A stretch of 64,000 nt of DNA from Bilabrum cf. latius (lineage: Eukaryota), in the NCBI GenBank assembly GCA_965178125.1, contig OZ237744.1, positions 434,001 through 498,000 of the forward strand. The letters are read 5' to 3'. The notes beneath the pieces are model-generated. The model did no database searches. It worked only from the letters and a program-made list of their open reading frames with translations, and had not been told where the DNA came from. This document shows positions 2,694 through 63,281 of this stretch, in pieces. The translations under genes and the position numbers were made by a program. Positions within the stretch are counted from its first letter, which is position 1, and the number at the start of each line of letters is the position of its first letter.

Positions 2694-5600
2694 ATGCGAA
2701 GAGTCCACACGAAGATCAGCAATATGTTGTCAGTTGCGGCAGCGATACTGTTGTTACTGCATACAGTTGATGCAAATAGCGGTCCGCCGCCTATGCCAAA
2801 TTCGACGTGTGATGTCCCGGAAGGCAGTCCACCGATTGACTGGCACGCGAATGTGGAGCGAAAGATGCTGCTCTTCTCAGATGATGACGGTTCCATCAAG
2901 TCCGATGCACGCCCAGCTATTGGAAACGGATTCTTTGCAACATAGGTGAGGCGCGCCAGTTTAACGCGTTGGTGAGGCCACTAGCTCAACGCGTGGACAA
3001 TGCTTATCCTACAATTTCTACTCTGCTCATGCTCGCAGGTCTCGAGCGGAGACTTGTTCGTGTCTGGGCTGTTCAATGGGTACCTGACCAAAGATCCCAG
3101 CCATCATGCCAGACTGCCTTCGTTCGCGAACATAATGGTCGTGGGCGGATCGTTCGACAAGGCCGGCCGCTCCGGAGCTGCCTTGAACCTGCAGAATGCA
3201 TCCTACATGCGGCGCATGGTGATTCCATTCGACGAGGCGTGCTCACCTGGCTCTAAGCAGAGTTGCACGGGAACTGAAAAGGACGGGGTTGTCGTAGAGC
3301 AGAGGTGGTACGCCCATCGAACCCGGCCGTCGCTTTTGGTGCATGAAATCGAAGCCCTGGCTCCATCAACGTCGGTAAACCCGTCGCAACCACCGAGACA
3401 AGCCCAGGCCACGGCAGCCCGTGCCCCCTTTGCCGTTATAGTCGCCCGACGTATCCCGTCTCCGCCTTCCTCCGACGTGGATCTACAGGAGATGACCCCT
3501 CCGGCGGGTCTCGCGCTCCAGCTGCAGGGAGGACAGAACCTTGTACCAGAGACCAACAGCACGCCGCACACTTCCGCTGTTCTCTTCTACGACGATCTTC
3601 CAGGTGTGATTGAGGTTTCACAGGCTCCGGGTGACTACGGAAATGCCTTCACTACAGTCCTTGCCGGCGTGCGCACGTCGCTGGAGACCAACGGCAGTGT
3701 GCCTGACATTGCCGAGGCTCTCCTGCAAGACAGAAAGAATGCAGTTCAGGCACAGAAGGAAAAAGGTATTGGGACCTTGCGAGCGGAGCACGAGGCGGCG
3801 TGGGCTTAGCTCTGGCAGTCCGGTCTGGAGGTCAGTGGACGCACCGACGTGGATGCAGCTGCTCGGCAGAGCCTCTACTCTCTCCTCTCTTCGGCAAGGT
3901 CCGACCGTGCGTACGGCCTGTCTCCGGGTGGCCTGAGCACGGACGGCTACCATGCACACGTGAGAATGTATCGCTCTACTTTGTTGAACCCAGCAATGTT
4001 GTGTGCTAGATCCGGCGCCTGCATGCTAAGCACATGGCACATGCAACTGTGCCTATGTCTTTCTCTGGTATTCGGCGTGTGTGCTGTAACCACCTTACAT
4101 TCATCCGTACATATCTTGTTGTCGCAGACCTTTTGGGACCAGGAGACCTGGATGTATCCAACGCTGGCGCTTCTCCAGCCCGAAATTGCTGCGAGCCTGC
4201 TGCAGTACCGCAGGGCCAGGCTGCAAGGAGCCTACGAGAAGGCGAGGACCTACCAGAACGGGTCGTTTCCCGGGTACTACGGGGCGATGTTTCCATGGGA
4301 AAGCGGCTTCACAGGTGTCGAGGTTTGCCCCTCGTGGGCTAGAACTGGCCACAAGGAGATCCACATCACTGGCGACATTGCCCTGGCTGTGTGGCAATAT
4401 CACAGGCTGACCAACGGCACAGAACAGTAGTGGCTGGAGGATGTTGCCTGGCCCATTTTGAATGGAACGGCGTCCTTCTGGGTGTCTCGCGCATCTTCTA
4501 AGCCATCCTCCTCCTCGTCACCATCCGTGCAGCTGGATGGTATGCCTGTGCGAGGGCCCGGTGCGGGCCGAGACTTGGATGCGTTTCTCGCCGGAGAGGG
4601 AGTGGAGGCAGACGCAGCTTCATCTGCGGATAACTCAGGACCGCTCCACATAAACGGTGTCATTCCTCCAGATGAGTTCCATTTAGGCGACGACAGTGTG
4701 TACACGAACGCGGTGGCGCGCCTGAACCTCCGTTTCGCGGTCAGTGCAGCTGAGGCCTTGGGCCACGGGAACGAGCCGCTTGTCGCCACCTGGCGAGACG
4801 CGGAGCCAAGGATCGTGATGCTATTCAACGAATCGAGCAAGGTGCATCCCGAATTTGCGCAATACAAAGGGGATTAGATCAAGCAAGCCGACGTTATTCT
4901 GCTCGGGTATCCGCTCGGCCTCGCCACCGAACCATTTGGAAACGTCACGGCAGAGAGTAGACAGGCGGACCTCAGCTACTACGACCCCAGGACGAGTCCA
5001 AAAGGGCCTGCGATGACCTGGGGTATGGTCGCCCTCGCGCAGGTGGAGCTTGGCATGATTCAGGAGGCAGAGTACAACCTGAACAGGAGTTTCTAGCTCA
5101 ACACGCGAGCTCCATTCTGCACGTGGACGGAGACGCCTTCAGGAGGCTGCCCCGATTTCCTTACCGGCGCAGGCGGGTTTCTGCAAGGGGTGACCTTTGG
5201 GTACCCACGGCTTCGAATCGCGGATGGCCACCTCGAGCTCAGGCCGGTGCTGCTCCCCGGCTCTGACAAGATGGTCATTCGCGGCGCGCACTACCTTGGG
5301 AGCGTACTTGATCTGACTGTTGCGAGGAGTGGCAGTGAGACCCAACTGCAGGTCGGTGTGCGGGCAACACCAACGCTCGTGCCTGTCCGAGCGAGTCATC
5401 CGCGTGCATCGGATAGTCTTCTGGCAGCTTCTAGTTCAGACGAGGTTGTGGCCAATAAGGCTGGGTCTGACGTGTCAGTGGCGCGTGCTAGGGCAGCATG
5501 TGGACTCCATTCTGGGCAGAGGCTCGATGATCTGGACGACGGTCTGCTCAGGTGCGTAGGAGCTGCTGCATCAGGTAGCCGCAGTCTGGCGGCGCAGCCC

Positions 5601-5732
5601 GTGGCGCAGCTGTGCGTGGTAGACTCGCGGGGCCAGATTCATCCCTTAACCGCTGGAGGGCCATCAGTCAGCGTAGAATGCCCGCCGCCCACCGCCGACG
5701 CGCCAGCGATACTGATCCAAGCTTGTCAATGA
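2694..5732 (+). CDS. Glycoside hydrolase family 65 (PGGHG / acid trehalase-like), 3 exons
   Basis: Exons 2694-2945, 3039-3959 and 4128-5732. Signal peptide. GH65 motifs IGNGFFAT, GLSPGGLS..YHAHTFWDQETWMYP, GAMFPWES, EIHITGDIA, VIPPDEFH, IKQADVILLGYP, GPAMTW, FLTGAGGFLQ. In-frame TAGs at 2943, 3807, 4428, 4875 and 5094; ends TGA. Confidence 0.9.
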
Positions 5733-20385: not shown

Positions 20386-20886
20386 TCAGGTACGGGGAGT
20401 ACGATCAACAGACGATCTCTCAAACGACTTGCCAGTTGGCATGCGGTCCTCGGCTCGAACGACGGAAGTCGGGTCAGCACCCTTAGCCACATACACTTCA
20501 ATGTCAAAGCCGTCTGTAGGACGCCACCCAGGGTCCAAAAGGGTCTGCATGGTTCTATCGAGCTCGACTTCAGAGTCAGCAAGACACTTGCGAAGGGTTG
20601 ATACCTCCCGCGCCAGCTCTCGAACTCGAATGGTGTCATCGGCTGCGGTTCGAACTGCCCTCTTCAACAGAGTCCCTCTTCGGACAATGGAAACACCCCT
20701 CTCGGCAGCGGGCGTCTATTCAGATTCGTCATGCACTTCCTGCGGTTGCTGCTCTTTGGCACCGGTTGCACCAGATATTGTGCCAGCTTTGATTATGTTG
20801 TGTGCTTCCTTTGCGGAACGAAATCGAGATGCTGCCGGGAGAAACAGGTCTGTTTCTGCGACAAAGTCATTTTTGGGAGATTCCAT
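20386..20886 (-). CDS. Small hypothetical protein (166 aa) with short coiled coil
   Basis: ATG at 20886 (MESPKNDF...) to TGA at 20386 with one in-frame TAG at 20716-20718. No family recognised. Confidence 0.5.
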
Positions 20887-21049
20887 ACCGAAGCTATATT
20901 TGCATTTGTATCAAAATTGACCTAGATCTAACCGTTGGAATCACAGCATGTGACGAGCCACGGTCGCAAGCGGGGGTCGCATCGCATCGCATTACAGGTG
21001 TTGCAGGCAAACTGCGACCCAGCAGTCTCAATCCAGAAGATATCCCCTG

Positions 21050-21344
21050 CTCAGTTGGTCTCCACGCACGTCCCGGCCGGCACGCTCGCCACGTTCCGAC
21101 CGCTCTGCCCGATCACGCAGCTCACGTCGGTCCGCTTCCCGTCCTTGGCCACAGACACCACCACCGTCTCCCCGGGGGCGCCCTCCAGCGTCACGCTCGC
21201 GCTGCTGCCGTCCTCCGCCCACGCGATGAACCGGTCGCCCGAGGTGGGCACCCACTTGCCGGCCTCGCCCAGCAGCGCCCACCCGTTGGGAGACACGGGG
21301 CTCAGGTGGAAGAGCTCGAACGTGTACTGGTCCGAGGGGGACAG
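21050..21344 (-). repeat. Direct repeat copy A: orphan duplicate of the last ~97 codons plus stop of the gene at 26631-29212
   Basis: 295 bp identical to 26630-26924 except at 21066, 21084 and 21329. Confidence 0.95.
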
Positions 21345-24300
21345 TGATAAGGGGACCTGATCTTTTGTGGAATCACCACGCTATCACGAAGCCACATCTG
21401 GAACAAAGGCCCGGGACCTACCAGACTTCACGCTTCAGCTGCAATGGCCTAAACCACCTAAGCTCCACCCTGAGGACCCATTTCCCCCTGGGGAGCGTCA
21501 GCATTCACGTTCCCTCCGGCATACCCGTTCTGGGCCAACCCTGCCTCGATATTGGCGACCGCTGTGGCGAGGTTGATGTGTTCGGTTGCCCCTACAGCCA
21601 CTGGCACTGGCAGGCTGGCAAAGTCGTCCCGGACCACCCTGACGAGCGCCCGTTTGGCCTTCACTGCAGCACTTCGAACTTTTCGAGCCAAAATCGAGGG
21701 CGCTTGAGTGGTCCTGCACGCCCCGTGAGTATATAGTGTGGTACACACGCTGTTCCCCGCGCACGTGCTGGTGCTAGGCGGCGACCGAAAGGCGAGCCTT
21801 AGGTACAGAAGACCGCGAGATGCGTGGATTGACCGGACGGGTCGAAACCCGCCACCCCTTGTCCTCCTATCTCTTCTTCCGCAGCTCGTCAAGCACCTCC
21901 AGGAACTCGGCCGACTTCTCCCCGATCCCACCCAACACGTCTACCACAAAGGGTACGACTCCGTCGGACCCGCACGCCACTGTGCACCGTCCCTGTCTGT
22001 GTCCTCATAGTCCCTGGCCGGGGGGTTTCTTATTGTTTGACAACTAAGTTTGTGATTCAACTCAAAGGTGCACGCTTTCACGATTACGCATGAGTCATTG
22101 GCCGGGCCAAAGGGCTGGAAATACAGAAATACAGAAATACATTGTTGGGTAAAGATTCCATAAGCACCCAGATGCACCGTCGCCCCCGAAGGCGTTTGGG
22201 TGATCACCTAGATCCAGAGGAGCCCTAAAACAAAGGACTACAAGACCCCCGACCCTTTCAGGCCAAAGGCCCCCCGTTCTCAGCCTATGCCGCCGAGTTC
22301 CCATTCTTCGCCATCAGTGTGGTCCCCCACAGGCCCCCAGCCTGTTGCCTTCATAAGGAGAAAGCATACAGGTGCGGAGCGTGTGCCTGGCACAAGGCGC
22401 GGTCCAGTCCCACATCGGGTTCCCCGGTCGAGACCCACCATTTCCTCCTCCATGACCGTCTCTGCGTCTCACGATCCTTCAGAGAGGCGAGCATGCACGC
22501 GCTCATGCCTTTGGCCCATTGCCTCTCTATATCCTTTAGCAAGCCGTGGGGCTTGAAAATCCGTCGCTCTAGTCGGGCGTTCGCATTGGTTGCCGCTATC
22601 AGCTCCTGCGTGGCCGTGGCGGCTAGGGCAGCCGCCGCATCACCACGCATCCACTGCCTGCATGTCAGCTGCTCCTGCTGGCGCAGCTGGTTTCTGAGCA
22701 CCTGCACCACTCGGTTGGCCAGCACCTTGACAGCTGTACGTTCCGAGGACCGTGCAATCGTGCGCTCTATCCGAATGAGCGCGTCTTCGACAATTGGCTT
22801 GGCCCTGTTGGTGTGCTCCAGCTTCTCGTCCCAAGGATCCAGGGTGAGAGCTGTCTTCGCCCATGCCTTCCGAAGAGAGGCGGGCGACCTCCCTCTATTC
22901 TGGCTGGCCCTGACCAACAAGTTGCGTGAAAGTTTGCTTAATCGGATCCGATTACCCTTGGTGCTGACTCACGCACTGCTGAGTGGCTCCCGTTGTCTCA
23001 TTTCTGGTTTGTGGCGACAAGCCGGCTTCACGCTAGATTTTGTGTATTTTAGTACGTAAAGTATGATACCTTGGAATCGGTTGCGTGCTCAGTCCCTTGC
23101 TCATGCGAGACGATTGCGCGCCAAGTTTCGGTGTGTTCCAGGTCTTCGTGCTCCTTGTCACGTAGCAAGTGGCACCTTCAGAAATTTCAGAGTGGTTCCT
23201 GTGATATATTCTGGAGTCGAGCCTATTCATAGTCAACGGTAGCATTTATCGAGATGCTTTTAGTCGACTGCAGCGGAGAAGCACATCGACCTCAAGACTG
23301 ACTGGCTGGAGAAATTGGGCCGTTGTTGGCGCACGCGAGACGTCGATATATTTTTGATGAATATCACTAACTCATCCAGGTGGCGAGGTCTGATTTCACG
23401 ACGTAGCTTGGAAGATGCCGCAGCTGCAGTGCATGAGCTCCATACTGATGCAACGACATTGTGCAGAAGCATTGGCTCTGACAAGCAGCTCATTTCAGAG
23501 GCAATTAGAGCAGCAATTGACAATACAGCTACTCCAGTTGTTTCTGATGAAGATGCCGAGCGGATGCAACGCTTGCACGCCGCTGGCCTTCTCTCTGTAC
23601 TGCAGAGCGAATCATGTGTGGATTACTTTCGATCCAAGCAGGCATTCCAGGATTTCCAGTCGATACAAAACCACATTGACACCTTGTTAACGGGCTACGA
23701 GGCAGCCAGAATCGGCTACGAGGCAGCCAGAATCAAGGTGCAAGAGAGGGAAGCGGCACTTGAAGGTGAAGTTGGCCTACCGGCCCACTACCCGCATGAC
23801 ATGTCTACCACGACAACATGGACTGCCGACATGATCGAAGGCTGGTGTTCCAAAGCAGATGCCGCTGGTTTTCGCACCGTGTGTGGCAAGACAGCTTCTG
23901 AATACATTCGCGAGGCGTGCCGCGTCGAGCCTGACGACTTATCGACACGGACCGCGTGCTCAGTTGCTGCTCGTGCTGTCCTGAATGCCTTACAGGTCCT
24001 AATGCATGCCAGGGTGGTTACCCGTGAGCTGGAAGTGCCTGTGTACGAAGCCCTCGTTCTCTGCGGAGCCCCAGAATCTCACCGTGAGAGGGCGTTGTTG
24101 TCTTCCATTGAAGCAGCCATGCATCTCATAGGGGGGCGATCTACACAACAGCGCAATAACGGGTTGCTGGTGGGTGCAAAAGGTATGGGCAAGTCGTCAT
24201 TGTTCAAGTCTATTGGAATGGCCATGGCCATGATAGACTTCGCCAACCCGGACGTGATTGTCTGTCCTGCGTATTCTGTCTCCCCAAAGGGCGCAGCTCC

Positions 24301-26629
24301 TCTTGCGCACATCGCAGAGGCTATGCACAAGAGAGGAATCCTCATTGGTGATGACGGGGTACTGCCTGCATGGTGCGATCCAAACTTCAGGTAGAATGCC
24401 AATGGAAGACAGGTCGCCCTGAAAAGTTGGATCAAGGCTTGGGAAAATGACAATGGCAAGTGCCTTGTCCCATTCCTGCTACTCGACGAAGTTGCGGATG
24501 TGCGATGGAAAACCAAGGACGTGGTGGATCGGTTCATGTATAACCTGTAGGCGATTGCGGAGCACGAACATGTGCCGATGGTGATGAGACTCACTGGAAC
24601 GTGGTCGGACACCCCGAACTTCTTGTTCAACCGCTAGGGTGCTTTTGCCTTGCAAAAGCAAAAAATCCCGACGTACCAGCTGCAGAATGTGTCTGCGACA
24701 GTTGAGGCGTAGCTCCTGTGTCTGTATGGCGACCCAGGCAATGATGTGGAACCGGGCGTTTTGATCGCGAAGGCGATTGCCAAGAGGATGCTCGAGGACG
24801 ACCAGCTGACCATTCTACGCAAGCATGGTTTTCTGTCTCCCTACCCATTACTAGGAACAGGACAGTCAAGGAAAATCTATGGTCCAGTGGTTATTACGCC
24901 CAGTGACGCCAAGCAGTGGCGAGATACTGTCCCGGACTGGAAGGAGTAGGCGATGGAGGGGGAGCAGCTGGTTGAGATTCTTCGGCATTCGGCTGCAAAT
25001 ATCCCGCGTTTTCTTGTCAGGAGTATTGATGACAGCGTGTCGGACATGATTGGTGATAGGCTGCGGAACGATCTCAGTAGTGACCCGGCGTTCGCCCACT
25101 TTGCAGGTTGGTTGCTGCGCCAAACAGTGGCTGGAGGCCATCACAGCCTCAGACTTGCGGAGAAAGATTTCGTTGAGAGTGGTGTAGAAGTCTCCAACGA
25201 CATTGTGCGTAAGTCGCTTGCTGAAGCAAAGCAAGCTTCAGATGAAGGAAGTGTGGTCAAGTTCTTGGATAAGTACAATATTCGTGGCCATATTGTGACG
25301 GAAGCGGAGAAACCGAATTCGGTTGCGCCTCGTCTCGTGCGCTTTAGCTCGAAGCTGTTCCTTCTGGTTGCTAATGCTCACCTCAATCATGTGGCAGGTT
25401 AGCTAGCATAGATAGAGATCAGTGCACTGCATGATGCCAGTGGAGTGTATGGACAGGATCCAATTGAAGGTCTTGTTGCTGAAGGCTTCGCCTTGAACGG
25501 TCTTGACACGGTTGGAGAGCGCGTGGGGTTGAAGGGGACCCTTGGATTCCGCAGGCTGGACACTGAAAGATTCATGAAGGCATTGCCATTTGTGGGGAGG
25601 AAGAACAAACGCGTGAAGCAAGAAGCCGGTCTAGATAGGCTAGATTTGAAAAGAACAGCCGGCCAAGTTATTCCCGTCAATACGATACTGAAAGAGAGCC
25701 CTGACCGGCGTAAGGCTGATTTGGTGGCGATTTGTGTTGCTGATGGCTCAGATGAAGCTGTGGTAGTTCGGGCGCAGGTGAAAATGGACAGGATTCCCGA
25801 TAGGTGGCTGGAACACGCGAAGCACCTCTCCCGTTCTTGGTAGCGTAGAGTAGATGGGTTTGAGCCAGTGCTGTCGTGTCTCTAGCAGGCCAGCAATTTA
25901 AAGCATATCAAGAAGTGGACGCACCTGCCAGTCTGGCTGTCGGCAGTAGAGCCAAGTGATAAGAATGAGATCGAGGCCACTGGCGTGAAGGTGGTGAGCG
26001 GGGAGGCATTCTGGAGGATGGCCATTCCAGCGGTGCAGCTGACAGTGACTTCTTTGCATGAGTCGGCGCCCGAGTTCACGGACGATGAAAAGCACGACCT
26101 GTTGTCTAGGGTATAGCGACCGTTCACCTACATGGCCAGCGTAGAAAAGCGAGAGATTCGGCGTGAATGATGCAGGGATTCCTAGCGTATGCCCCTATTC
26201 TGGTTCAAAAGCTTCAAAAGCTTCAGGTGGAGTGAACAAGGTGGTATGGCACGTCCAAGCCCTGCCAGTCTATAGGAGGAAGGACGAATATTTGCCTGCG
26301 CCGATCTCGTCACCGGTTCGGTGCGCAACTATTGTGCGGTGTGCGATCTGAGATTGGTAAGGTAGGATGGTACACGTCTTACCCATTTTGTGCGTAGGAG
26401 TTGAACCGCACTTTGCTCGTGCTTCCGGTCGCAGCCAGGGCTGCATAGAGAGGCCAATGTGGCCAAACTTGGGTTGTGCTTGTTTTGATCGCACCCGCCA
26501 GAGCTTGCAACTGGGCCACCGATGGAAACTGATTAGTTTTTGACATCTGATAACTGATGTGTCATTCATGCCTGCAAAGAGCTCTCGCGTCACTTGCCCC
26601 GCAAAGCGTGGGGGCTGATTCACGCAGAC
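21345..26629. mobile_element. Putative ~5.3-kb insertion between 295-bp direct repeats, carrying an NTPase-REase ORF and degenerate ORF fragments
   Basis: Bounded by the duplicated gene 3' end. Visibly less GC3-biased than flanking genes. No terminal inverted repeats or integrase recognised. Confidence 0.5.
23063..26170 (+). CDS. P-loop NTPase + PD-(D/E)XK endonuclease-like protein (Crinkler/RHS-type architecture), 1,035 aa
   Basis: Intronless frame from ATG 23063 to TGA 26168-26170 with 12 in-frame TAGs. Walker A GLLVGAKGMGKS; Walker B PFLLLDEV; C-terminal PIEGLVAE...KADLVAI...VRAQVK (E..D..QxK REase-like). Confidence 0.65.
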
Positions 26630-26924
26630 CTCAGTTGGTCTCCACACACGTCCCGGCCGGCACACTCGCCACGTTCCGACCGCTCTGCCCGATCACGCAG
26701 CTCACGTCGGTCCGCTTCCCGTCCTTGGCCACAGACACCACCACCGTCTCCCCGGGGGCGCCCTCCAGCGTCACGCTCGCGCTGCTGCCGTCCTCCGCCC
26801 ACGCGATGAACCGGTCGCCCGAGGTGGGCACCCACTTGCCGGCCTCGCCCAGCAGCGCCCACCCGTTGGGAGACACGGGGCTCAGGTGGAAGAGCTCGAA
26901 CGTGTACTAGTCCGAGGGGGACAG
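26630..26924 (-). repeat. Direct repeat copy B, forming the in-use 3' end of the secreted glycosidase-like gene
   Basis: Matches 21050-21344 at an offset of 5580 bp. Confidence 0.95.
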
Positions 26925-29212
26925 CTGCAGGGGGTGGGAGCCGTCCACCTGCACCAGCTTGTCCGTTGAGTTCTGCTCGAACGCCACGTACGACTCGCCC
27001 ATCAGGCCCAGGTCGGTCAGGGACAGCGACATGGCGTCGGTCAGGTCGGCCGACAGCACGTGCCCGAACCGCAGCCCCTGCACCGACGACTCTGTGCTCC
27101 ACACCTCGCCTTCTGCACCGGTGCTGAAGGCCCTGTTGCCGATCATCGCGTCCACCAGAGTGGCCGACCGGTCGGGCCGCAGGAGGATCCCGTCCTCCCT
27201 GCAGGTGGCCATGATGATGGAGCGGTTGGACAGGCCGATCTGGTCGCTGAAGGCCACGGGGCCGCGGCTCAGCGTGAGCACAGCGGACTGCAGGCGGTGC
27301 CTGGGCTCAGTGCGATCGTCGTGGTACTTGTTCTTGGCCAGTGGCTGGTTGGTCTCCGACCAAGCGTTGTCCTTGGACGGCGCGATGCCCACGGCGTTGG
27401 CGAGCATGCCGCTGAGGCTGACGATCCACTGGTCGGAGAGGCTGGAATGGTAGTCTCCAGAGGCCCTCGCCTGCGACACCGTGGGCATCTCAAGCGACTG
27501 CATGATGTGGCGCACATGAGACATGCACATCTGGATGTGCTTGCCGGCGATTTGGGCACCTGCGTCCATCTGCATAAGCCACTGGCGGCCGACGGTCGCG
27601 CTCTCAGTGAGGATGGGCAGCTTGTCGGTCTGGAAGTCCAGCCAGTCCTGCTCGTACACGTCCATGGTGGCCCCCGGCCCCTTGGGATCCGTCATGATGT
27701 GCACCCACAGGTCGGTGTCCACAGGGAGGGCGAAATCGCCCGAGAAGACGAAGTTGTAGTCACCACCGTTCTTCTTGGCGTACACGGTCTGAGGAGACCA
27801 GAACCTGCATTTAATAGACGAGACAACATGGACAGACGAAAGGTATCGATGGGACGCCTTCACGACTACAAACCAAGACCTGCAGACCAAGGGGCGGTCT
27901 GAGGAGACCAACCCAAAACAACACCAGCCAACTCACCGGTTGTGCGCGATCGCCTTCCACTCCGTCTGGTTGTAGATGTACTCGAAGCCGTCGGGGAAGA
28001 TGCTCGGCATGGGCACCCACTCCGTCACTGCGCTCTTGTCGTCCTTGGGGTACCACCAGCTGTCTGCCAGCCACGTCCTGTAAGGGATGTTCTGCTGCTT
28101 GGCATACTTGGCGATGTCCACCATCGTGTCCTGGTAGTTCTTGCCAGGCTCGGTGTTGTAGTAGTACACGGCGCCGCTGCGAGAAACATGAACAATGCAA
28201 CACAAGGGGAAGGCGGAAGCAGTGATTCAAAGTGCACGGTGGGACGCACACGCAACAGGCGCCAAGCGGAGGAAGCTAGAAATCAGCCTCACTTGTCGGT
28301 CGAGTACTGCAGCGTGCGAAGCGTGAAGTCGTTGTCCGGCACGTCGTCAGGCTTGTTGTACGCCCGCCGCATCACCCGGCCCCAACCGCGCACAGCCGCA
28401 TTCACGCCGGCCTCCGCGTTGTTGCCGCCATGCACGATGGTGGACGTGGAGTACCCCGCCGGGATGTCCGTGACCGAGCCCATGGTGCCCGCCCGGAGGA
28501 CGCGCTGGCCGGTGGTGTCGAACTCGTGGGAGGCGGTGAAGAACTGGGAGAAGGGGCTGATGATGACAGAGCGCGCCTGGTCCTGGTCGAACACCACCAG
28601 GGGGCCGGTGCCCGAGACACCGCCCGGCACTTTGCCGGTCGAGTTGTCCCACTGCCCGATGTGGGTGCCTGACGCGCACATGTCGCCCTCGAACGCGAGG
28701 TATCCTCGCAGGCCTTGCTTGGATGCTCCTGATGGCCATTCCCCGACCACCAATGAAGGGAACGATGAAAGCACGCCATCGCGCGGCGAGCTTCCAGAAA
28801 TCGAAGTGTTCTTGGCTCCGTTCGGCCAGCTCTGCTCGAATACCACAAACGCCTGGTCCCCGCGCTCTCCTCCCCCGCTTCCATACTGACGCACCGTCGT
28901 CACATATGGGGTGCTGCCAGCCTTCCACGTGATGGACGTGCCAGTCCACTCGCCAAACGAGTCGGATCCAGACACGCTCGAATGGCCGGCGTAGCCCAGC
29001 GACCCGTCGGCCGTGCTGTACTTTTGCCCATCAGCCATGGTGAATACATCAATGGACTCCAGGTAAGCGTCGCCGCCGACCTGCAGGACGATGTGACCGG
29101 ACTGGGGATCAGCGATCGTTGCCGTGACGTCGTTTGGGTTCGCGGCAGTTGCAGTTGTTGGCATGTGGGCGGTGAGGGCCACCGCCGCCAGTAACGCTGC
29201 ACAGGTGTACAT
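26631..29212 (-). CDS. Secreted glycoside-hydrolase-like protein (TIM-barrel, possibly clan GH-D related), 3 exons
   Basis: Signal peptide MYTCAALLAAVALTA. Introns at about 28179-28291 and 27805-27935. Motifs YSTDNGAVYYY, LADSWWY, IFPDG, AHNRFWS, VYEQDWL, QARASGDY, GPVAFSD. One TAG at 26907-26909; ends TGA. The function assignment is inference. Confidence 0.7.
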
Positions 29213-30646: not shown

Positions 30647-30717
30647 TACTCGCGCCGGGAATCGAACCCGGGCTATTTGAATGGAAATCAAAGATACTAC
30701 CATTATACTACACGAGT
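30647..30717 (-). tRNA. tRNA-Gly (anticodon TCC)
   Basis: Cloverleaf with acceptor ACTCGTG/CGCGAGT, anticodon arm TTTGA-TTTCCAT-TCAAA and T arm CCGGG-TTCGATT-CCCGG. Discriminator A, followed by a T6 Pol III terminator. Confidence 0.85.
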
Positions 30718-31264: not shown

Positions 31265-34200
31265 TCAGTTTTCGTACAGGAATGCTGCACCTGCTTGAGT
31301 CTTCCTCTTTCCCCTTGCCACCATGCCACCCATCCGACGGACTCCAGGTTGCCGCAACCCCCCACCGAGCTTTGCACCCAGTGTGCCATTCGCACCGGCA
31401 GCAGCTGAAGAGCTCGCAGTTGCAAGTCTGCCAACAGCCTTGCTATTGACAACGACAACGGCACCAGCACCAGCACCAGCACCAGCACCAGCACCAGCAC
31501 CAGCAGGTCCACTATCGGCACGTAATCCAGGCGCTTGACTTGCTACTTGACTATTCAGTGACTACCCACCCCCTGATGCGCGGTCAATACTGCCTGGCTT
31601 GGTGCTAGACGCTACGGACTCTTCTGCTGCATGTGTAGAGGATCCAGGCTTCGAAGACGATGTACCAGCGAGGCGGCGAGCTAGCTTTGTCCCGGTCCCG
31701 GTCCCGCCTCTCGCTGCGCGACCATGGCCAAGGGATGGTCTCTTTCTTGCAACCGATAGGCGCGGCCTTACCGCGCTAGAAGAAAGCAACATCGTACCCT
31801 CTCCTGCTGCGGCTCCTGCGCGAGGCAGGCTCGTCCTTCCCCTCAGATGAGATGCTTGCCTGACCGAGCCTGGAGTGCCTGCTGCGCGGTGACCCGTTGG
31901 CTGGGTCGAGATTCGCCGCATCACAGGGCAGCACCCTACCCTCATGTCAAGACTCCATTCTAGTTCGGGTGCCTGCGTCCTCACCGCTGCCTTCAAATCC
32001 GAGCCGTGGGCAGGTACCGGCGCATGCTTGCTGCTTGCGCGGCATGCAGATCCTGCGAGCCACGCACTCCCACCCTTCATCACCTGCTGGGCAGCTACTG
32101 CTGCTGCCCATCCAGCGGTTGGCACGTGGTTGAGCCCAGCAGAAGTCGCAGCACCCGCAGCACCAGCAGCTTGGGCAGCTTTTCGAGACCGTGCAAGCGA
32201 CAGAGCAACCTCCCGGCGCAGGCCAGCCATGACGGGTGCCAGGCTCCTCGTGCTGGCATCAGTGCGAGTCGCCAGGTGCGTGCAGTCTGTCCAAGTGCAG
32301 CGCACTGCAGGTATTCTTGGCATGACTGACATCAGAAGCACGTCCCTGAGAATGACGACGGTACCGGGCTGCAGCACCCGCTTCGCTGCCCCGAACCTGT
32401 CGTGCCTGCCCTGCAGCTCGAGACTGAGCAGGCCACCAGACTCATCCGTTAGAAACACCTCAACGTCACCCTATAGCGCAGTGCCAGAACGACCTCTCTC
32501 GCCTTCCTACGACAGGCTAGGACCTGTTGCAGCTGCTGCTCGCCGGGCCACAACGACCGCCACGATGTCTACGATTGAGTTAATCTGGACGACCTCGGGC
32601 AACGTCATGGCTGCAGGCCTCACTCGCCTGATCCAGGCAAACTCGCTTAGGGGCGAGGGCGGCGATTTCGTGGGTGGGGGCGCGGGGGTTTCTGCTCTTG
32701 CTATTGCGCGTCCGCTCCACGTCTCAACTGTGCCCTGCCCTCCTAACGAATTGTCGAACCGTACTATCTTTGGAGTAGCCCCGGAGCTAGCCGCATCAGC
32801 TTGTGCTGATGCCTCAGTACTATCCTCCGATGTACCAGGGCATGGAACCGGTATTCCGATAGCCCGCGAAATCTCCGCGATATTCCATCGCATCCGACCC
32901 GAATATCCGATGTTTGACAATGAGATAGCTTGGGCCAAGTCACGCCTGTTGCTGGCCGAAAGCCTAGATTTTGCAGGGGTCTGCATCGCGCTAGCATCAA
33001 AGGACACGGATAGCACACTCTCTCCAGCACTGGACGATTTCTTTGCGGAATGCAAAGGAGTGACCGCCTTCGTTGCGTGTGACATGGGCCTTGCATCTTC
33101 ACCTGAAGATCGCCCATTCTAGCATGGGCCAGTCCCACCCCCAGCTGGCTGGTCTTTCGGAACCGGCAAGGGAAGCGGCTCTGCCCTCGTTCCCCTGGTA
33201 GACGACAATCGGATGCCGAGCCTTGCTACTGCAGCGTTACCTCCTGTTCTGCTTGTGAGCCCGCGGCACCCTCGGATCTTTGCAGCGGCTGCCGATGCTC
33301 CATGCGAGGCTGGAATGAGCGGCGCTCCGCGTCGCTTCCTCGCGATTCTGTGCAGAGCAGACATGGAGGCTGCCGCGCTGCGCCTCTGCAAGGCTCGCAG
33401 CTATTGCTAGCGGCTGAAACCCTTCGCGTGCTGCGCTACATCCGGAGGGGCCCACCACGTCGAGCTTCCACGCCTAGCATCTCTGAGGTCCCCAGGTCGC
33501 ATGTGCGGGCTGCCACCGACCTGGACGTTGCACAGCCTCACCCGGGACCCCTCGCGCAGGCCGTGCATCTCGTCCATGCCGGCCCGCCACAGCGTCACTT
33601 CTGCCTCTACCACGAGAGGCACCTTTTGAGCGGCCATTCTAGACAGTGATTGAAGCTGCTTCTGCCAATCTGAGTCATCCAAAGGTGCAATGCCTGCAGC
33701 CTCGGGCCGATTGCGCTTTCCAAATACCTGCGCTTTGGAAGCAGTAGCGCTCACCGCAGGAGCCTCGGTTCTCGCTTTCTTCCTGGAGTGCGTCTACGGG
33801 GTGGACCATACGCCCTTGCTGTCAGGACGTGGTGGCGAGCTTGAAGCACATGCTTGCGCAGCCGTCTCGTCATTGGCACGGGTAGGATCTGAATGCACCG
33901 ATGACGACGTCGAAGAAGTTGCTCCAGGCTGCGGTGGCACTGAATCTGATTTGGTCGCCTCATCGCTCGCCTCTTCTGGTACTTCCGGTCGCTTTCGCTT
34001 CCTCGGCAGGGCACCCGCGGCACCATTGCCATCAAAGGAAGCCTTCTCAAGCTCCATCCTTGCCTGCGCCTGAGACAGCAGGATGGGTCTTACAGCCCCT
34101 TGCAGACTTGTTTCTTCTCTCGAAGCTGCTCCACGCAGCACAACCGGCGAGAAAGGCAGGGGTGGCATTCGGTGAGCCAAGCGCTTCCCACTGCCGTTCA

Positions 34201-37200
34201 CAGGGGCAGACATGGGCCTGTTGAGCTCCTCTTCCTGGGAACCGGAGGTGTCCGTCTGATGGTTAGAATCCCCCTAGCTACTAGACAGCCGTGACAAGCG
34301 CCGAGACAGCCGTGATGGCGGAAGCCGCCCACGCGCAGAGCTAGGAGTCTGGCTGCCTGCCGTTCTGCCTGCGCCAGTAGGGGTTCCTGACACCCCATCT
34401 GATTCGTCGCCCTCCATCATTTCCTGAGTCGCAACGTCACCAAAGGCAGCGAGAGCATCCTCCAGGCTGGCATCCAGATCATGACCGGCATCATCGCTGT
34501 CACCGTCTGAGCCAGCCCGCCCAGGGTGTTTTCGATCAGCACCTGGTCGTACCGTGCGGGACGCACTGCCGGCCTTTGCCGGCGGGCTGAATCGCTTTGG
34601 CCCTTTTGAAGCAGCTAGTTCACGGCAGCGTCTCAAATGAGACTCGAAAACGGGGTCCTGCGGTGCCCAGCAGTCATGGTCGCCACTATCTGAGCCAGTC
34701 CGTGGCAGCGCTGATTCTGGCGGCCGCGGCAACGGGGCAGGACCCGCTGATCCAGCGGTCGCGCCAAGAGTGACCAGCTCGGCCGGGCACTAGTCCACCA
34801 CGATGCAGCTCACAAAGGGCATGGCATCTTCTCTCCTGCCGCCCTCGAGCTCTCTCAACTTGGCTTCAGCGCGCCGTTGCTGTGATTCAACGCACGCAGC
34901 CATCTCTTGCCTCAGCATCGATTCCATGTCTTCGCCATCGCTACCCCGTGACCTTTTCCTGTTCTACTTGGTCCGCTGCTGCATTTCACTCTCAACCTCT
35001 TGCCTCTCCTTTGCAAACTCAACCTCCAGCTCTGCCTTGACCCTTGCCACCTCTTTGGCTCGCTCAGCAGAAGCTTGTTTCGAGAGCATGTCAAGCTCAA
35101 GTTGGGACACTGAGCGCTTGGATCCATCGGGGAGAGTTGCAAGGTACCGCGGGGCCATCTGTCGCACCACCGTAACAACGATGCAGGGGGCAGGGCCTCC
35201 TTCTGGCAGCAGCGACCGAAGCGATACTGGGAACAGCTGCTGCTGCTGAAATCCAAGCTTTGCGTGCCAAGGTGCTCTACGAGTAGCATTTGCGAACAAG
35301 ACGAGGTGTCTATCCTTCAGTAGGTCGCGCTTCAGCATACCCCTGCCTTTTTGCTTCGACTTGGAGGTCGACTTGGACCTCTTTGACGAGCTGCTTAAAA
35401 CAGATGACGAAGAGGACGCAGAGGCCTCGCGTGACCCCGTGCTGAAGTCAGACCAGCCCCCCAAATGCATGTGTACAGCATTGGTTGCTGTCTCAAGTGG
35501 GTCGCAGCCGTCTACTTGCATGCCTCCGCCCCGCCCACCAGCAGGCTTTGAAGAGCTACCAGCACTTCCTGATGCTTGCTGGTCACCTGATGGAGCGGTA
35601 GCGGCTTGAATACGCGCAACACCCCCAACAAGCTGGGCACAAGAGACCCTGATCTTGTCGCCAGGCCGAATGCGACGATCACACGCATACCTTGACAGAT
35701 GGGGGTCAAAGCGAGCCTGGATTGAGTACCATCCATCTGAAAGAGTTGCGACAGCCTGATTCGCCTGGCCAGCTGCACCGCTCACTGCCTTGTCGGTCTG
35801 CTGCAGCTCCGATGCAGTATTTGTCTCGATGCTTTCTACGGCCAGAATCATATATCTTTCAGCCTTCGAGTCCCCTTCCAGTACTCGACGCAGGGCAGAG
35901 CGCCGCCCTTCACTGAACTCCCGTTGGAATCGCTTCCCCAGCCTGGTAGCAACGACTCCGAGACGCAAGCAGGCATCTCCAGCCGCTGCAACGACCGGGT
36001 CGGCTAGTTCGGCCGGTAAAACCTGCTAGGCAATGCATGCCCCTATCTGTAGCGCCTCTCTCAAGTCACTCTGCGTCGATCCTGTCAACGACTTCAGCTA
36101 ACGTGCAGCCTCCTTCAGGATCCAGTGCTCCATGGCTGCAAGCTTCCACACTGTCATTTTAAACTGCTGGGCAATCCAGGACGGCGTGAGCTGGTCTGCA
36201 GGACCCGTCCCGGACTGCACAAGCTGTCGATGAATATCCTGCACACCGACCGTTGCAAATGGCACGGATAAACCGCTTTTTCCAGCGACGACCCTTCCAT
36301 CCCCGCCGAATCGAGTGAGAACTGCATCCCCTGCGGTCACTTTGAGGCCACCGAGCTGCGACAGCAAAAATTGCTTAGCTCGAGAAACGGCACGATCGGG
36401 GTGAATCCCCAAGTTGTCGATCTTCGCAACGAGCTCCAAGGGGCTAGACCGCATGCTGCCGCTCGACTCTGCAGCCGCCCTAATCGCCATGAATGCACAC
36501 AGACAAGCGACACGATAGGCTCTCTGTTGCAAGCCGTCTTTCATGGATACCTTCGGGCCGCTTAAATGCGCGTTGTGCTGGCCGATCGACCACATTCCGG
36601 CCGGGCCGATGAACAGAGCTCGACTGGAACTCTTAGAGGCTTCAGCAGACTTTGCAGCTTCAGCGTGCCTGTTCTAGGCAGGCTATCGCACCCTTGCGGC
36701 CGGTGTCGGTGTCATTAACGCCAGCTGTGGCATATCATCGTGTGATATGTCAGCACCAACTGTACGGTTGAATGATGCGGGGGTTTTTGAGGGTACTCCG
36801 CGGGCTAAGGCAGACCTTGGGGTGCTTGCTAAAGCACTCATTCCTGACGTAGCGGCATGGATGCCTATAGCACTCATCGCCGACCCCTCCAAGGATTCGA
36901 GAGCCAGTGCACTGCTGCTGCTGCTGCTGCTGCCTTTGCCGACAGTGCCATCTACCTGCGAAGCGTCTGGTTTGGTACCATTTGCTCCTCTACCTGCACT
37001 TGCACCTGCACCTCCATCTGTCCCAGCCGCCTCCAGCAGCTTGCCCGCCTCCCCATCAGCCGATGCCAGCATCGCACGAGCTCGAGCCTGTGCCTCAGCC
37101 GACACACGCACTGGCCGGTTCCGCCCTGTCTGGAAGCCCACGCTGCCCCCCGATGAGGCACCGCCAACAGACCCACTACTAGCACCGCCTGATGCACCTG

Positions 37201-40200
37201 CACCACCACCTGCACCTGCACCTACATCTGCCCCAGCCGCCTCCAGCAGCTTGCCCGCCTCCCCATCAGCCGATGCCAGCATCGCACGAGCTCGAGCCTG
37301 TGCCTCGGCCGACACACGCACTGGCCGGTTCCGCCCTGTCTGGAAGCCCACGCTGCCCCCCGATGAGGCACCGCCAACAGACCCACTACTAGCACCGCCT
37401 GATGCACCTGTACCACCACCTGCACCTGCACCTCCATCTGTCCCAGCCGCCTCCAGCAGCTTGCCCGCCTCCCCATCAGCCGATGCCAGCATCGCACGAG
37501 CTCGAGCCTGTGCCTCGGCCGACACACGCACTGGCCGGTTCCGCCCTGTCTGGAAGCCCACGCTGCCCCCCGATGAGGCACCGCCAACAGACCCACTACT
37601 AGCACCGCCTGATGCACCTGCACCACCACCTGCACCTGCACCTACACCTGCACCTGCACCTCCATCTGCCCCAGCCGCCTCCAGCAGCTTGCCCGCCTCC
37701 CCATCAGCCGATGCCAGCATCGCACGAGCTCGAGCCTGCGCCTCGGCCGACACACGCACTGGCCGGTTCCGCCCTGTCTGGAAGCCCACGCTGCCCCCCG
37801 ATGAGGCACCGCCAGCAGACCCACTTCTAGCACCGCCTGATGCACCTGCACCACCACCTGCACCTGCACCTACATCCCCATCTGCCCCAGCCGCCTCCAG
37901 CAGCTTGCCCGCCTCCCCATCAGCCGATGCCAGCATCGCACGAGCTCGAGCCTGTGCCTCGGCCGACACACGCACTGGCCGGTTCCGCCCTGTCTGGAAG
38001 CCCGCGCTGCCCCCTGATGGGGCACCGCCAACAGACCCACTACTAGCACCGCCTGATGCACCTGCACCACCACCTGCACCTGTACCTGCACCACCACCTG
38101 CACCTCCATCTGCCCCAGCCGCCTTCAGCAGCTTGCCCGCCTCCCCATCAGCCGATGCCAGCATCGCACGAGCTCGAGCCTGCGCCTCGGCCGAATCACG
38201 CACTGGCCGGTTCCGCCCTGTCTGGAAGCCCGCGCTGCCCCCTGATGGGGCACCGCCAGCAGACCCACTACTAGCACCGCCTGATGCACCTGTACCACCA
38301 CTTGCACTTGCACTTGCACCTCCATCTGCCCCAGCCGCCTCCAGCAGCTTGCCCACCTCCCCATCAGCCGATGCCAGCATCGCACGAGCTCGAGCCTGCG
38401 CCTCGGCCGACACACGCACTGGCCGGTTCCGCCCTGTCTGGAAGCCCGCGCTGCCCCCCGATGAGGCACCGCCAGCAGACCCACTACTAGCACCGCCTGA
38501 TGCACCTGCACCTGCACCTGCACCTACATCTGCCCCAGCCGCCTCCAGCAGCTTGCCCGCCTCCCCATCAGCCGATGCCAGCATCGCACGAGCTCGAGCC
38601 TGCGCCTCGGCCGACACACGCACTGGCCGGTTCCGCCCTGTCTGGAAGCCCGCGCTGCCCCCTGATGGGGCACCGCCAACAGACCCACTACTAGCACCGC
38701 CTGATGCACCTGCACCACCACCTGCACCTGCACCTGCACCTGCGCCTGCACCTGCACCTCCATCTGTCCCAGCCGCCTCCAGCAGCTTGCCCGCCTCCCC
38801 ATCAGCCGATGCCAGCATCGCACGAGCTCGAGCCTGTGCCTCAGCCGACACACGCACTGGCCAGTTCCGCCCTGTCTGGAAGCCCACAATGTCATTCGTA
38901 TGCGATGTTTCAGGAGCCTACGTACTAGAATCGACAGCTGATGAGTCGTCTTGAACGGGCTGTGCAGCGCCCGGTGACTGTTGTGAAGCAGATACCGAGC
39001 CACGACTAATCCGATCGAGTCGGGGAGACTTAAATCGCCTACTGTCTGCCCCCGTTCGACGAATGTCCTTGGGAGAGTCCGCGCCAGCGGTATCACTTGC
39101 TGTCTATCTTACCCGCAGTCGCTTCTTCGAACGCCTAGCCTCAGCGAGTCCAGACACAGTTGGCGAGTATGCGAAGGACTATGAGTTCGAGCCAGGGCTG
39201 GGCACAGCTGCCACTGCCGCATCCACGCCTACGTCTATATCGCGCGTCACAGCAGCTGAGCTTGAAGCAGTTGCACCGTTGTCTGTTGTGCTGCCAGCAA
39301 TAGCGCGCTTTGCAGAGCTTTCCTTTCGAGGAGAGTTTTGCGACGGCTACGACGGCTCGCTGCTGTCAGGAGCGCCGTGAGACTCCAAGGATGGCAAAGC
39401 CTGCTGCTGAACAGGTGGCTTATTGGAGGCATCTGCCCTGCTCACAGCCTATGATGGCGTCATTGATTGCTTCTGCACAGTGTTAGTGGCCATGCTATTG
39501 CCAGCATCGGCCTACATACCCGACTCATCGCTTTCTGGGGATGGGAGCACACGTCCCGCTTCACCGATTTTGCCTGAAGCAACCATCCTATCACTCGCGG
39601 AGCGCCCGAGGACACTGTCAGGCTACTATGACCCTTGCCTTGGCGCGGCACCAAACGATGCTTCTTCCTGTGTCTCAGCTTGCATAGATGCAGCTGCATC
39701 ACTGAAAGCTATGCCGCGGGGTGAAAGTACCCCGCCAGACTAGCCCTCTGCGTCAGTGACGGCAGTTCTAGGCACCGCAAGGGGCGCTGCAGCACCGCTC
39801 CTGGCGGTTACCCCCTGCAGCTCAGTGTTCTCGAAGCTGCTCGCATCCGCAGCAGCGGCTGGGGCCGGGCCAGACTGGCTCGTGCCCGAAGCGCCCGACC
39901 CCTAAAGCTACCGCTTGCTACCTTGTGAGGTGGAGTCAGAAGAATCAGGCGATGGATCGGAATTGGCAGAATTCGGTGATGTCCCTTTCTGCTTGCTTCT
40001 TGAGGAAGAGCGCCGGTTTTTCGAGGACTTGCTCGGTGCTCGCTTTGCACCGGGGGACGCGGATCTGCGCCCCCTTTTCGACCTTGAAACGCTAGCTGGC
40101 GCAGATTTCGGTCGTGGGACGCCGCACATCTTGCATTTTCTAGCCCTAGAATTGTTGTTGAAGGTGCACATGCTGCAGTCCCAGCGATCCTGCTCAGCTT

Positions 40201-40381
40201 TCAGACGTCGCATCTTTGCTCGCTCTGCACGCGTCATAGCCTTAGACTGGCTGGATGAGATACTATCAGATGCAATGATATCACCATCCAATGGCTGCAC
40301 ATCGTCTATGTCATTGTGGTCATCTGCTTCCTTACCACTGAAGTACGCTCCCGCAGCACCTGCCCCTTCCAATTTATCCAT
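31265..40381 (-). CDS. BRCA2: BRCA2 homolog (~3,040 aa): N-terminal RanBP2-type zinc finger, 9 BRC repeats, helical domain, OB folds and tower
   Basis: Ten ORF-track fragments all lie in one frame and all end in TAG. SWIAQQFKMTVWKLAAME (helical domain); REFSEGRRSALRRVLEGD..MILAV; LSDGWYSIQARFD; LFANATRRAPWHAKLGF; FPVSLRSLLPEGG; OB3-like IVDIVAVVV and VFLTDES. Terminal TGA at 31265. I did not check every codon for hidden stops or introns. Confidence 0.9.
31461..31505. repeat. (GCACCA)n hexamer microsatellite encoding (GA)n near the BRCA2 C-terminus
   Basis: About 7 perfect units directly visible. Confidence 0.85.
36990..38887 (-). repeat. Tandem array of 9 BRC-repeat units (~204-240 bp each)
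   Basis: Near-identical core GFQTGRNRPVRVSAEAQARARAMLASADGEAGKLLEAAG separated by Gly/Ala/Ser linkers whose length varies through CACCTG hexamers. Confidence 0.95.
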
Positions 40382-40731
40382 AGGAACCTCGAGCCGGTTG
40401 TTCTATCACGGTGTTACAAACACACTCAAATCTTGTGTGGATTTACCGTACGGCCTGTTTCTACTCCTGCGGCACGCCACCTGTGCGAGCAATTCCAAGG
40501 ACACGCCTGACGAGCGGAAGCAGCACCTATCAAAGATGGGCTGGAGAGTACTAACACAATTATCTATCAGCTAAGGCCAAGTATTGAGATCAAACGAAGG
40601 AATTAGGTTCCAGTTGGTGCACTAACATTCAAATTGCCCACGGCGTTCGTAAGGAACCTTGATCGAACCTACTCGGCATCCGACGACGACGAACAGCACA
40701 AGGAGATTCAATGGAATAAGCAATACGAACA

Positions 40732-63209: not shown

Positions 63210-63281
63210 TCCGTAATGGTGTAATGGTTAGCATATCTGGCTCTCACTCAGGTAATCCGGGTTCAATTCCCGGTTACGGAA
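63210..63281 (+). tRNA. tRNA-Glu (anticodon CTC)
   Basis: Acceptor TCCGTAA/TTACGGA; anticodon arm TCTGG-CTCTCAC-TCAGG; T arm CCGGG-TTCAATT-CCCGG. T6 terminator follows. Confidence 0.9.

Follow-up and report, generated by a model that had tools for sequence, protein, structure and literature searches.

The DNA analysed here is a stretch of 64,000 nucleotides (nt) from Bilabrum cf. latius (contig OZ237744.1, positions 434,001 to 498,000), which will be called the window, and all coordinates are counted from its first letter. Its minus strand carries a three-exon gene for a protein that resembles the glycosidases of family GH36, and the 295 nt at the 3' end of this gene are present a second time as a detached fragment. 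The two copies differ at three sites, and at one of them the intact gene has an in-frame TAG where the fragment has CAG. Reading frames across the window show that TAG is a sense codon in this genome, and the comparison of close copies supports glutamine (Gln) as its meaning. The features of the gene and its duplicate are given below; L001 is a metagenome contig that encodes a relative of the gene, and X1, X4, X5 and X6 are public sequencing runs.

21050..21344, minus strand: copy A, an orphan duplicate of the last 97 codons, the TGA and 1 nt more of the GH36-like gene
21327..21329, minus strand: the CAG (Gln) codon of copy A, the ancestral state, common to the outgroup L001; covered by an X5 contig with 0 differences
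26630..26924, minus strand: copy B, the 295 nt that form the true 3' end of the GH36-like gene
26907..26909, minus strand: codon 686 of 777, an in-frame TAG with the meaning Gln, derived from CAG; present in X1, X4 and X6 contigs
26631..26633, minus strand: TGA stop of the GH36-like gene; the repeat extends 1 nt past it
26631..27804, minus strand: exon 3, with 1 nt, 390 sense codons and the TGA; second half of a (beta/alpha)8 barrel and a C-terminal beta-sandwich
27937..28176, minus strand: exon 2, which fits the family consensus
28293..29212, minus strand: exon 1, with the ATG at 29212-29210 and a hydrophobic, signal-peptide-like N-terminus

The gene has 777 codons, its introns are 116 and 132 nt long with GT..AG ends, and the exon junctions recreate the family consensus near "TDNGA.YYYN" and "AHNR.WS". 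The TAG lies in frame in the minus-strand open reading frame (ORF) 26631-27911 and is followed by 91 sense codons and the TGA at 26633-26631. This agrees with a preliminary description of the locus, which had assigned the TAG to the copy attached to the intact gene and had counted about 90 further codons after it. A search with the exon-3 product in a library of 1.8 billion proteins found 2429 relatives at E<=1e-3, most of them ~750 amino acids (aa) long and matched up to the extreme C-terminus.

No Pfam match was found for P0001 (the exon-3 product), for exons 1 and 2 or for the homologues P0007, P0008 and P0014, and the family profile gave a weak match by sequence (E 0.011) to the structure 7exf, which is AtRS6 of Arabidopsis, an alkaline alpha-galactosidase/raffinose-synthase-like protein of GH36. 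For these two reasons the gene is labelled GH36-like and is not filed as a family member. A model of P0007, which is 49% identical to the window protein, was made from a 30-sequence alignment and had a predicted local distance difference test (pLDDT) score of 92.9 and a predicted template modelling (pTM) score of 0.92. The model consists of an N-terminal beta-sandwich, a (beta/alpha)8 barrel and a C-terminal beta-sandwich, and its best Foldseek match was 7exf (E 1.6e-22, template modelling (TM) score 0.61-0.68), followed by other GH36 alpha-galactosidases and then by GH97 enzymes. AtRS6 has the same three-domain build as the modelled homologue, although the sequence identity is just 12-13%. 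By its predicted fold, which is that of clan GH-D, the window gene is a GH36-like glycosidase, and the best explanation of its product, as judged from the model, is a secreted glycosidase with an alpha-galactosidase-type fold.

Pairwise alignment and a repeat search determined that the two copies are a direct repeat identical at 292 of 295 positions, with a start-to-start spacing of 5580 nt and unrelated flanks on either side. Only two families of direct repeats of at least 60 nt occur in the window, the second being the BRC repeats of the BRCA2 gene, so the likeness of copies A and B is not a chance match. The differing plus-strand sites are 21066/26646, 21084/26664 and 21329/26909, and at each of them copy A has G and copy B has A. 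On the minus (coding) strand these correspond, in the order A/B, to TGC/TGT (Cys), AGC/AGT (Ser) and CAG/TAG, and both third-position differences (Cys and Ser) stand in CpG context. The preliminary description had reported the 295-bp copies and their three differences with the same codons and coordinates, all of which were correct on re-alignment. If TAG is Gln, the proteins encoded by the two copies are identical. Copy A lacks an ATG and meets a stop in its frame 13 codons upstream, and because of this it is taken to be unselected.

Twenty public runs contain the window or part of it, and six contain at least half of its sampled words. Logan contigs, which are de Bruijn contigs and not raw reads, of four runs (X1, X4, X5 and X6) from three studies were placed on the window; X1 is possibly the source sample of the assembly, and X5 and X6 belong to other studies. 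Zero-difference contigs cross position 26909 in X1 (26665-27219), X4 (26879-27219) and X6 (26590-27219). The preliminary description had allowed for an error at base 26909, and A stands there in all three. The X5 contig 21085-21437 covers 21329 and enters the unique flank of copy A. Both alleles, for which read mapping had been proposed, are therefore present in contigs of public runs. The left junction of copy A is covered by 20700-21114 in X1, X4 and X5, the junction at 26629/26630 is covered in X1, X4, X5 and X6, and 22873-26694 is covered in X4 and X5. In X4 the stretch 21085-21328, which lies between the variant sites and is shared by both copies, forms a contig of its own with a depth of 98 against 45-56 in the flanks, the ~2-fold value expected of a sequence present twice. 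The X6 contigs leave 20921-21362 without cover, from which no inference was drawn. Together, the contigs confirm that the duplicate, both alleles and all four junctions are real.

Two side observations were made on the same contigs. Contigs in all four runs join 26869 to 27175 (equivalently 21289 to 27175) and skip 305 nt; this joint has non-canonical ends (GA..CG) and 26 letters on its short side, may be a paralogue or a k-mer artefact, and was not used as evidence. The X6 contig over the 3' exon of the GH36-like gene (26590-27219) has a depth of ~250-400, against 2-10 for a neighbouring P-loop gene, and begins at 26590 immediately after Illumina adapter sequence. X6 may be an RNA run, and 26590 may lie near the 3' end of the mRNA; the RNA label is a guess, contigs cannot show expression, and the observation was not used.

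The role of TAG was determined from the reading frames of the window. With the standard stops there are no ORFs of at least 800 aa, and with TAG read through there are 11; reading through TAA alone gives 0 and reading through TGA alone gives 4. When TGA is the only stop the number is 13, against 11 when TAA and TGA are both stops. The 13 long ORFs contain 112 in-frame TAG and terminate at TGA (ten) or TAA (three), and nine of them have eukaryotic Pfam domains above the curated cut-off. In a Pfam scan of 10 ORFs seven were matched (PGGHG-like GH65, SulP, CorA, BRCA2, CCDC93, EF-hand and an RsmB/F NSUN2-like methyltransferase) and three of the long ORFs scanned had no Pfam domain. P0003 has WD40 and ANAPC4_WD40 matches and P0002 has AAA matches that are sub-threshold only, and the PGGHG and NSUN2 identities were borne out by comparison with solved structures. 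Since reading TAG through lifts the number of ORFs of at least 800 aa from 0 to 11, this genome uses TAG as a sense codon, with TAA and TGA kept as stops; the test of TAA as a stop is partly circular, as the ORFs were delimited by TAA, and applies to the window only.

The sequence after the TAG of the GH36-like gene was compared with that of its relatives. Query residues 380-420 are covered by 141 of the best 150 homologues, and in the alignment of these 150 the window protein has the majority residue of the column at 47 of the 91 post-TAG positions. Phe338, Pro345, Asn349, Gly350 and Trp351 are strongly conserved after the TAG. Against L001, the ratio of nonsynonymous to synonymous substitution rates (dN/dS) is 0.31 over the 91 post-TAG codons, where 62 of the 91 residues are identical, and 0.21 over the 298 preceding codons. 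These sequence comparisons demonstrate conservation of, and purifying selection on, the codons after the TAG. In the P0007 model the position of the TAG is a loop of the C-terminal sandwich, between residues 668 and 669, and a stop there would delete 8 of the 14 strands of this domain.

The protein encoded by L001 is 71% identical to the window protein: of 390 aligned codons, 277 specify the same residue and 163 are themselves identical. Opposite the window TAG there is CAG in L001, as there is in copy A. The sole in-frame TAG of L001 in turn faces a window CAG, and the L001 gene ends at TGA. Both TAG/CAG sites lie within gap-free, well-aligned blocks, so that two of two TAG among the 390 aligned codons pair with CAG. 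In the symmetrised window/L001 pairings Gln stands opposite Gln in 30 of 39 cases, Glu opposite Gln in 2 of 34 and Lys opposite Gln in 2 of 23, which gives a likelihood ratio for Gln of ~120 over Glu and 68 over Lys. The duplicate, the outgroup and the reciprocal swap, taken together, support the assignment of UAG to Gln rather than to Glu or Lys. As the outgroup has CAG, the TAG is the derived state in the selected, working gene. The CAG-TAG transition route put forward in the preliminary description therefore stands: by this polarity, the CAG-to-TAG change arose in the working gene and left the conserved downstream domain intact.

The explanation that we consider highly probable, taken as a whole, joins a nuclear code in which UAG is Gln and UAA and UGA are stops with a recent copy of a gene tail and a silent CAG-to-TAG change in the working gene. 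The window would be nuclear DNA of a GC-rich (rich in guanine and cytosine), intron-poor microbial eukaryote in which UAG is decoded as Gln and UAA and UGA terminate. The last 295 nt of the GH36-like coding sequence would have been copied recently, as the ~1% divergence suggests, and the copy, now a dead fragment (copy A), would have come to lie 5.6 kb further downstream, bordering a cluster of transposon fragments and with its orientation unchanged. The working gene (copy B) would subsequently have gained coding-strand C-to-T changes, one of which turned CAG into TAG. Because UAG means Gln here, this change would be synonymous, and the C-terminal beta-sandwich beyond the TAG would still be produced. 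We infer that UAG is decoded by a tRNA-Gln with the anticodon CUA and that eRF1 no longer reads UAG (neither gene lies in the window), and the direction of both third-position changes and the origin of the duplicate have the same standing.

A number of observations weigh against this explanation. The close-relative evidence is one gene with two or three sites, and the support for the alleles consists of contigs rather than raw reads, with X1 possibly the assembly's own source. The tRNA and Rfam scans of the window found only the two tRNA genes listed here and no anticodon CUA.

30647-30717, minus strand: tRNA-Gly(TCC), from the window scan
63210-63281, plus strand: tRNA-Glu(CTC), from the window scan

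Another of these observations concerns the statistic of the duplicate, which by itself is weak. With TAG taken as Gln, the 97 sense codons allow 291 transitions, of which 101 are silent, so that p=0.042 for three of three, and for C-to-T changes alone the figures are 50 of 88 and p=0.18. The preliminary description had argued that the three changes are silent only if TAG is Gln; all three are indeed silent under that meaning, but the duplicate alone weighs less than was implied. Since copy A is unselected, only changes that arose in copy B are informative. L001 has TGC at the Cys site and CAG at the Gln site, which places both changes in copy B. At the Ser site L001 has AGT, the state of copy B, so that either copy A changed or L001 changed in parallel, and the placing of all three changes in copy B is insecure for this reason. 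L001 is in any case a weak guide at silent sites, as just 163 of the 277 conserved residues keep their codon. The silent-only pattern could be due to chance, three neutral C/T mutations (two in CpG context) having all happened to be silent; the duplicate would then be uninformative on selection and on the code, and the code would be established by other evidence only. The two p values, the unselected copy A and the possible change of copy A at the Ser site fit such a coincidence, but the CAG-to-TAG change is polarised to the functional copy, whose downstream codons show purifying selection, and we regard it as a doubtful account. It is also compatible with TAG = Gln and does not contradict it.

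The remaining observations on this side come from distant homologues, which by sequence fail to distinguish Gln from Glu and Lys. In the automatic alignment the TAG of the GH36-like gene stood in an insertion (gaps in 148 of 150 sequences); its column was re-registered on a conserved Phe, with the count confined to the 122 of 150 sequences in which this Phe occurs. The residues in the column (n=122) are K39, R17, E13, L11, T7 and Q6. The GH65 gene has four TAG columns, with Gln in 13, 10, 17 and 9 of 120 sequences. In the P-loop ORF, ten TAG columns in relatives of 53-55% identity have E, E, M, G, K, Q, H, T, D and R, which is Gln at 1 of 10, against 6 of 19 at CAG/CAA columns. The summed BLOSUM62 scores over 15 TAG columns are 11.2 for Glu, 9.4 for Gln, 5.8 for Lys and 1.6 for Arg, so that Glu ranks above Gln, and for the remaining residues the sums are negative (Leu -29, Tyr -25 and Trp -39). 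Hydrophobic and aromatic meanings of TAG are excluded by these strongly negative sums. Comparison with solved structures added little: the residues of human PGGHG at the four GH65 TAG columns are Q, L, V and A, which is uninformative, and in the NSUN2-like gene no TAG lies within a confidently aligned block. Distant homologues cannot tell Gln from Glu or Lys because new UAG codons sit at variable positions, and the comparison of close copies is therefore the discriminating evidence.

These columns could also mean that UAG is a sense codon for Glu or Lys and that the CAG/TAG difference is a conservative replacement. The TAG site lies in a variable, mostly Lys/Arg loop, where such a replacement would be tolerable; Lys, Arg and Glu are the commonest residues of the family there, and CAG is the transition neighbour of TAG whatever its meaning, so that one pair at 99% identity proves little. 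UAG = Glu is known in other eukaryotes, according to PMC11687900. At 71% protein identity, however, TAG faces CAG in both cases and never GAG or AAG, in a pair of sequences with the rare Glu-Gln and Lys-Gln pairings given above, and a Glu or Lys meaning is very unlikely.

Instead of being cleanly reassigned, UAG might be ambiguous, coding within genes and terminating at their ends, as happens in some ciliates whose termination depends on context. A gene that truly ended at TAG would merely look longer here, since the ORFs were defined by TAA and TGA. The GH36-like genes of the window and of L001 nevertheless both end at TGA at the C-terminus of the family, all 13 long ORFs reach TGA or TAA, and nothing in the window requires a TAG terminator, which leaves an ambiguous codon with slightly poorer prospects than a Glu or Lys meaning. 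It is extremely improbable that the TAG at 26907-26909 reflects faulty sequencing or assembly, or that it is a true premature stop of recent origin: under the standard code the gene would lose its final 91 codons, and the public gene calls of relatives are similarly cut (the products of the P0004 cluster have 243-270 aa), but A at 26909 is found without any other difference in contigs of three runs from at least two studies, in-frame TAG is abundant in the long ORFs of the window, and the frame after the TAG is open to the TGA, encodes a protein identical to that of copy A, is kept in 141 of 150 homologues and evolves at the dN/dS of 0.31 noted above.

Between the two copies lie 5285 nt with the following features.

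21345..22909, no strand assigned: cluster of high-copy repeat fragments adjoining copy A at its upstream edge (21344), with a depth of thousands against ~50-95 in the flanks
22118..22141, no strand assigned: (GAAATACA)x3 microsatellite, at which repeat copies diverge in their flank; loose ends at 22118/22119, agreement about 0.5
23063..26170, plus strand: ORF for an orphan P-loop protein, with 1035 codons, 12 of them in-frame TAG, and the Walker-A-like motif GAKGMGKS; single-copy and convergent with the GH36-like gene

Copies of the repeat elsewhere continue beyond 22902 with one shared sequence, and the window copy is truncated at 22902. The ORFs of the cluster had no Pfam match and no Atlas match. 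From its sequence the repeat is probably a 5'-truncated minus-strand retroelement of the type that lacks long terminal repeats (non-LTR), with (GAAATACA)x3 as its 3' tail. Most of the interval (22910-26629) is single-copy and carries a conserved gene, the P-loop ORF. This ORF had no match among proteins of similar length and 5 matches among shorter proteins. In a relative, the P-loop gene lies on one 3118-bp contig as three gene calls (P0278, P0281 and P0282) that are 90-94% identical to the window. The C-termini of the three calls exactly precede window TAG codons 444, 780 and 927 (3 of 3), and one call begins just after TAG 67. The TAG positions are therefore conserved, and callers that use the standard code have split the gene.

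Several origins of the duplicate were considered. The end of copy A, 1 nt past the stop, has no 3' untranslated region (UTR), poly(A) or short flanking direct repeat, and no inverted repeats of at least 40 nt occur around the duplicate. A processed retrocopy is not supported for copy A, as there is no 3' UTR, poly(A) or target-site duplication. Target-site duplications of transposons are typically about 2-20 nt long; 295 nt is too long for one, and the interval is mostly unique single-copy sequence. Transduction in the 3' or 5' direction needs a source element within the intact gene, and there is none. Our best guess, held with low confidence and only just on the favourable side, is that a break in the repeat-rich spacer led to templated repair or template switching. 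Some form of transposon-mediated capture is a rather unlikely source of the duplicate, and another origin altogether is a shade less likely still.

Two other genes of the window deserve mention. The BRCA2 homologue (31265-40405, minus strand) has ~3046 codons and 26 in-frame TAG; at least 9 tandem BRC-repeat units are found at 36983-39028, with a period of 204-234 nt and 67-94% identity, and there is no TAG inside the repeats. In the PGGHG-like GH65 gene (2976-5732, plus strand) residues ~330-383 match nothing in human PGGHG, and from the sequence this segment looks like an intron retained in frame.

The code proposed here, in which UAG alone is reassigned to Gln, is that of NCBI table 15. According to PMC5304391, a UAG-only change to Gln with UAA kept as a stop was first reported in Iotanema spirale (Fornicata). 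It was later found in Protocruzia tuzeti and two lineages of phyllopharyngean ciliates, and PMC11687900 also names UAG-only changes to other amino acids, to Leu in a rhizarian and to Ser in Scotinosphaera. The window resembles the Iotanema/Protocruzia type, with UAG as a sense codon matching Gln and UAA and UGA as terminators. The codes in which both codons of the UAR pair specify Gln, known from hexamitin diplomonads, many ciliates and other protists, are similar in that UAG is Gln and CAG-to-TAG is the obvious mutational route, but they differ in that TAA acts as a stop in the window, where reading it through gains no ORF of at least 800 aa and three long ORFs end at TAA. Bacteriophages recoded from TAG to Gln (code 15) switch code during infection (PMC9523058); their codon and amino acid match those of the window, whereas the window carries spliceosomal introns and nuclear genes and is part of a eukaryotic chromosome.

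The window is also unlike the macronuclear DNA of ciliates, with its GC content of ~59%, its long and intron-poor genes, its dispersed high-copy repeats and its BRCA2, CCDC93 and PGGHG-like GH65 genes. The best named protein matches are 35-49% identical and are scattered over choanoflagellates, amoebozoans, euglenids, a dinoflagellate and a haptophyte. No description of a GC-rich non-ciliate genome with a UAG-only Gln code was found in the literature, which does not exclude that one exists. We offer as possible, but on present evidence improbable, the wider proposal that the organism belongs to an undescribed non-ciliate lineage with a UAG-only Gln code, in which codon capture is in progress, L001 has made a parallel swap and public gene calls are cut at UAG, at least for the GH36-like gene and the P-loop gene. 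The public GH36-like calls P0004, P0275 and P0276, which form the cluster of the L001 product, are 243-270 aa long and apparently cut at an in-frame TAG.

Since a UAG-only Gln code is already known from a few protists, the finding is mainly supporting evidence: the duplicate serves as a good control in support of the code and draws attention to public proteins that are mis-annotated, and is not a discovery by itself. The practical consequence is that gene callers that use the standard code truncate or split the genes of this organism and its relatives. The analysis also supports, as a method, the idea of the preliminary description that codon swaps between close copies can be used to read a code. 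The meaning of a reassigned codon is usually inferred from distant homologues, and here it is resolved by a paralogue of 99% and a relative of 71% identity, a comparison that additionally gives the direction of the change, from CAG to UAG in the selected copy. The finding gains weight if the host lineage proves new. It would then add to the handful of lineages from which the decoupling of UAG and UAA is known; the duplicate would show a CAG-to-UAG change fixed in a working gene within the time of ~1% divergence, and a second species, the source of L001, would have made a like swap at a different site of the same GH36-like gene.

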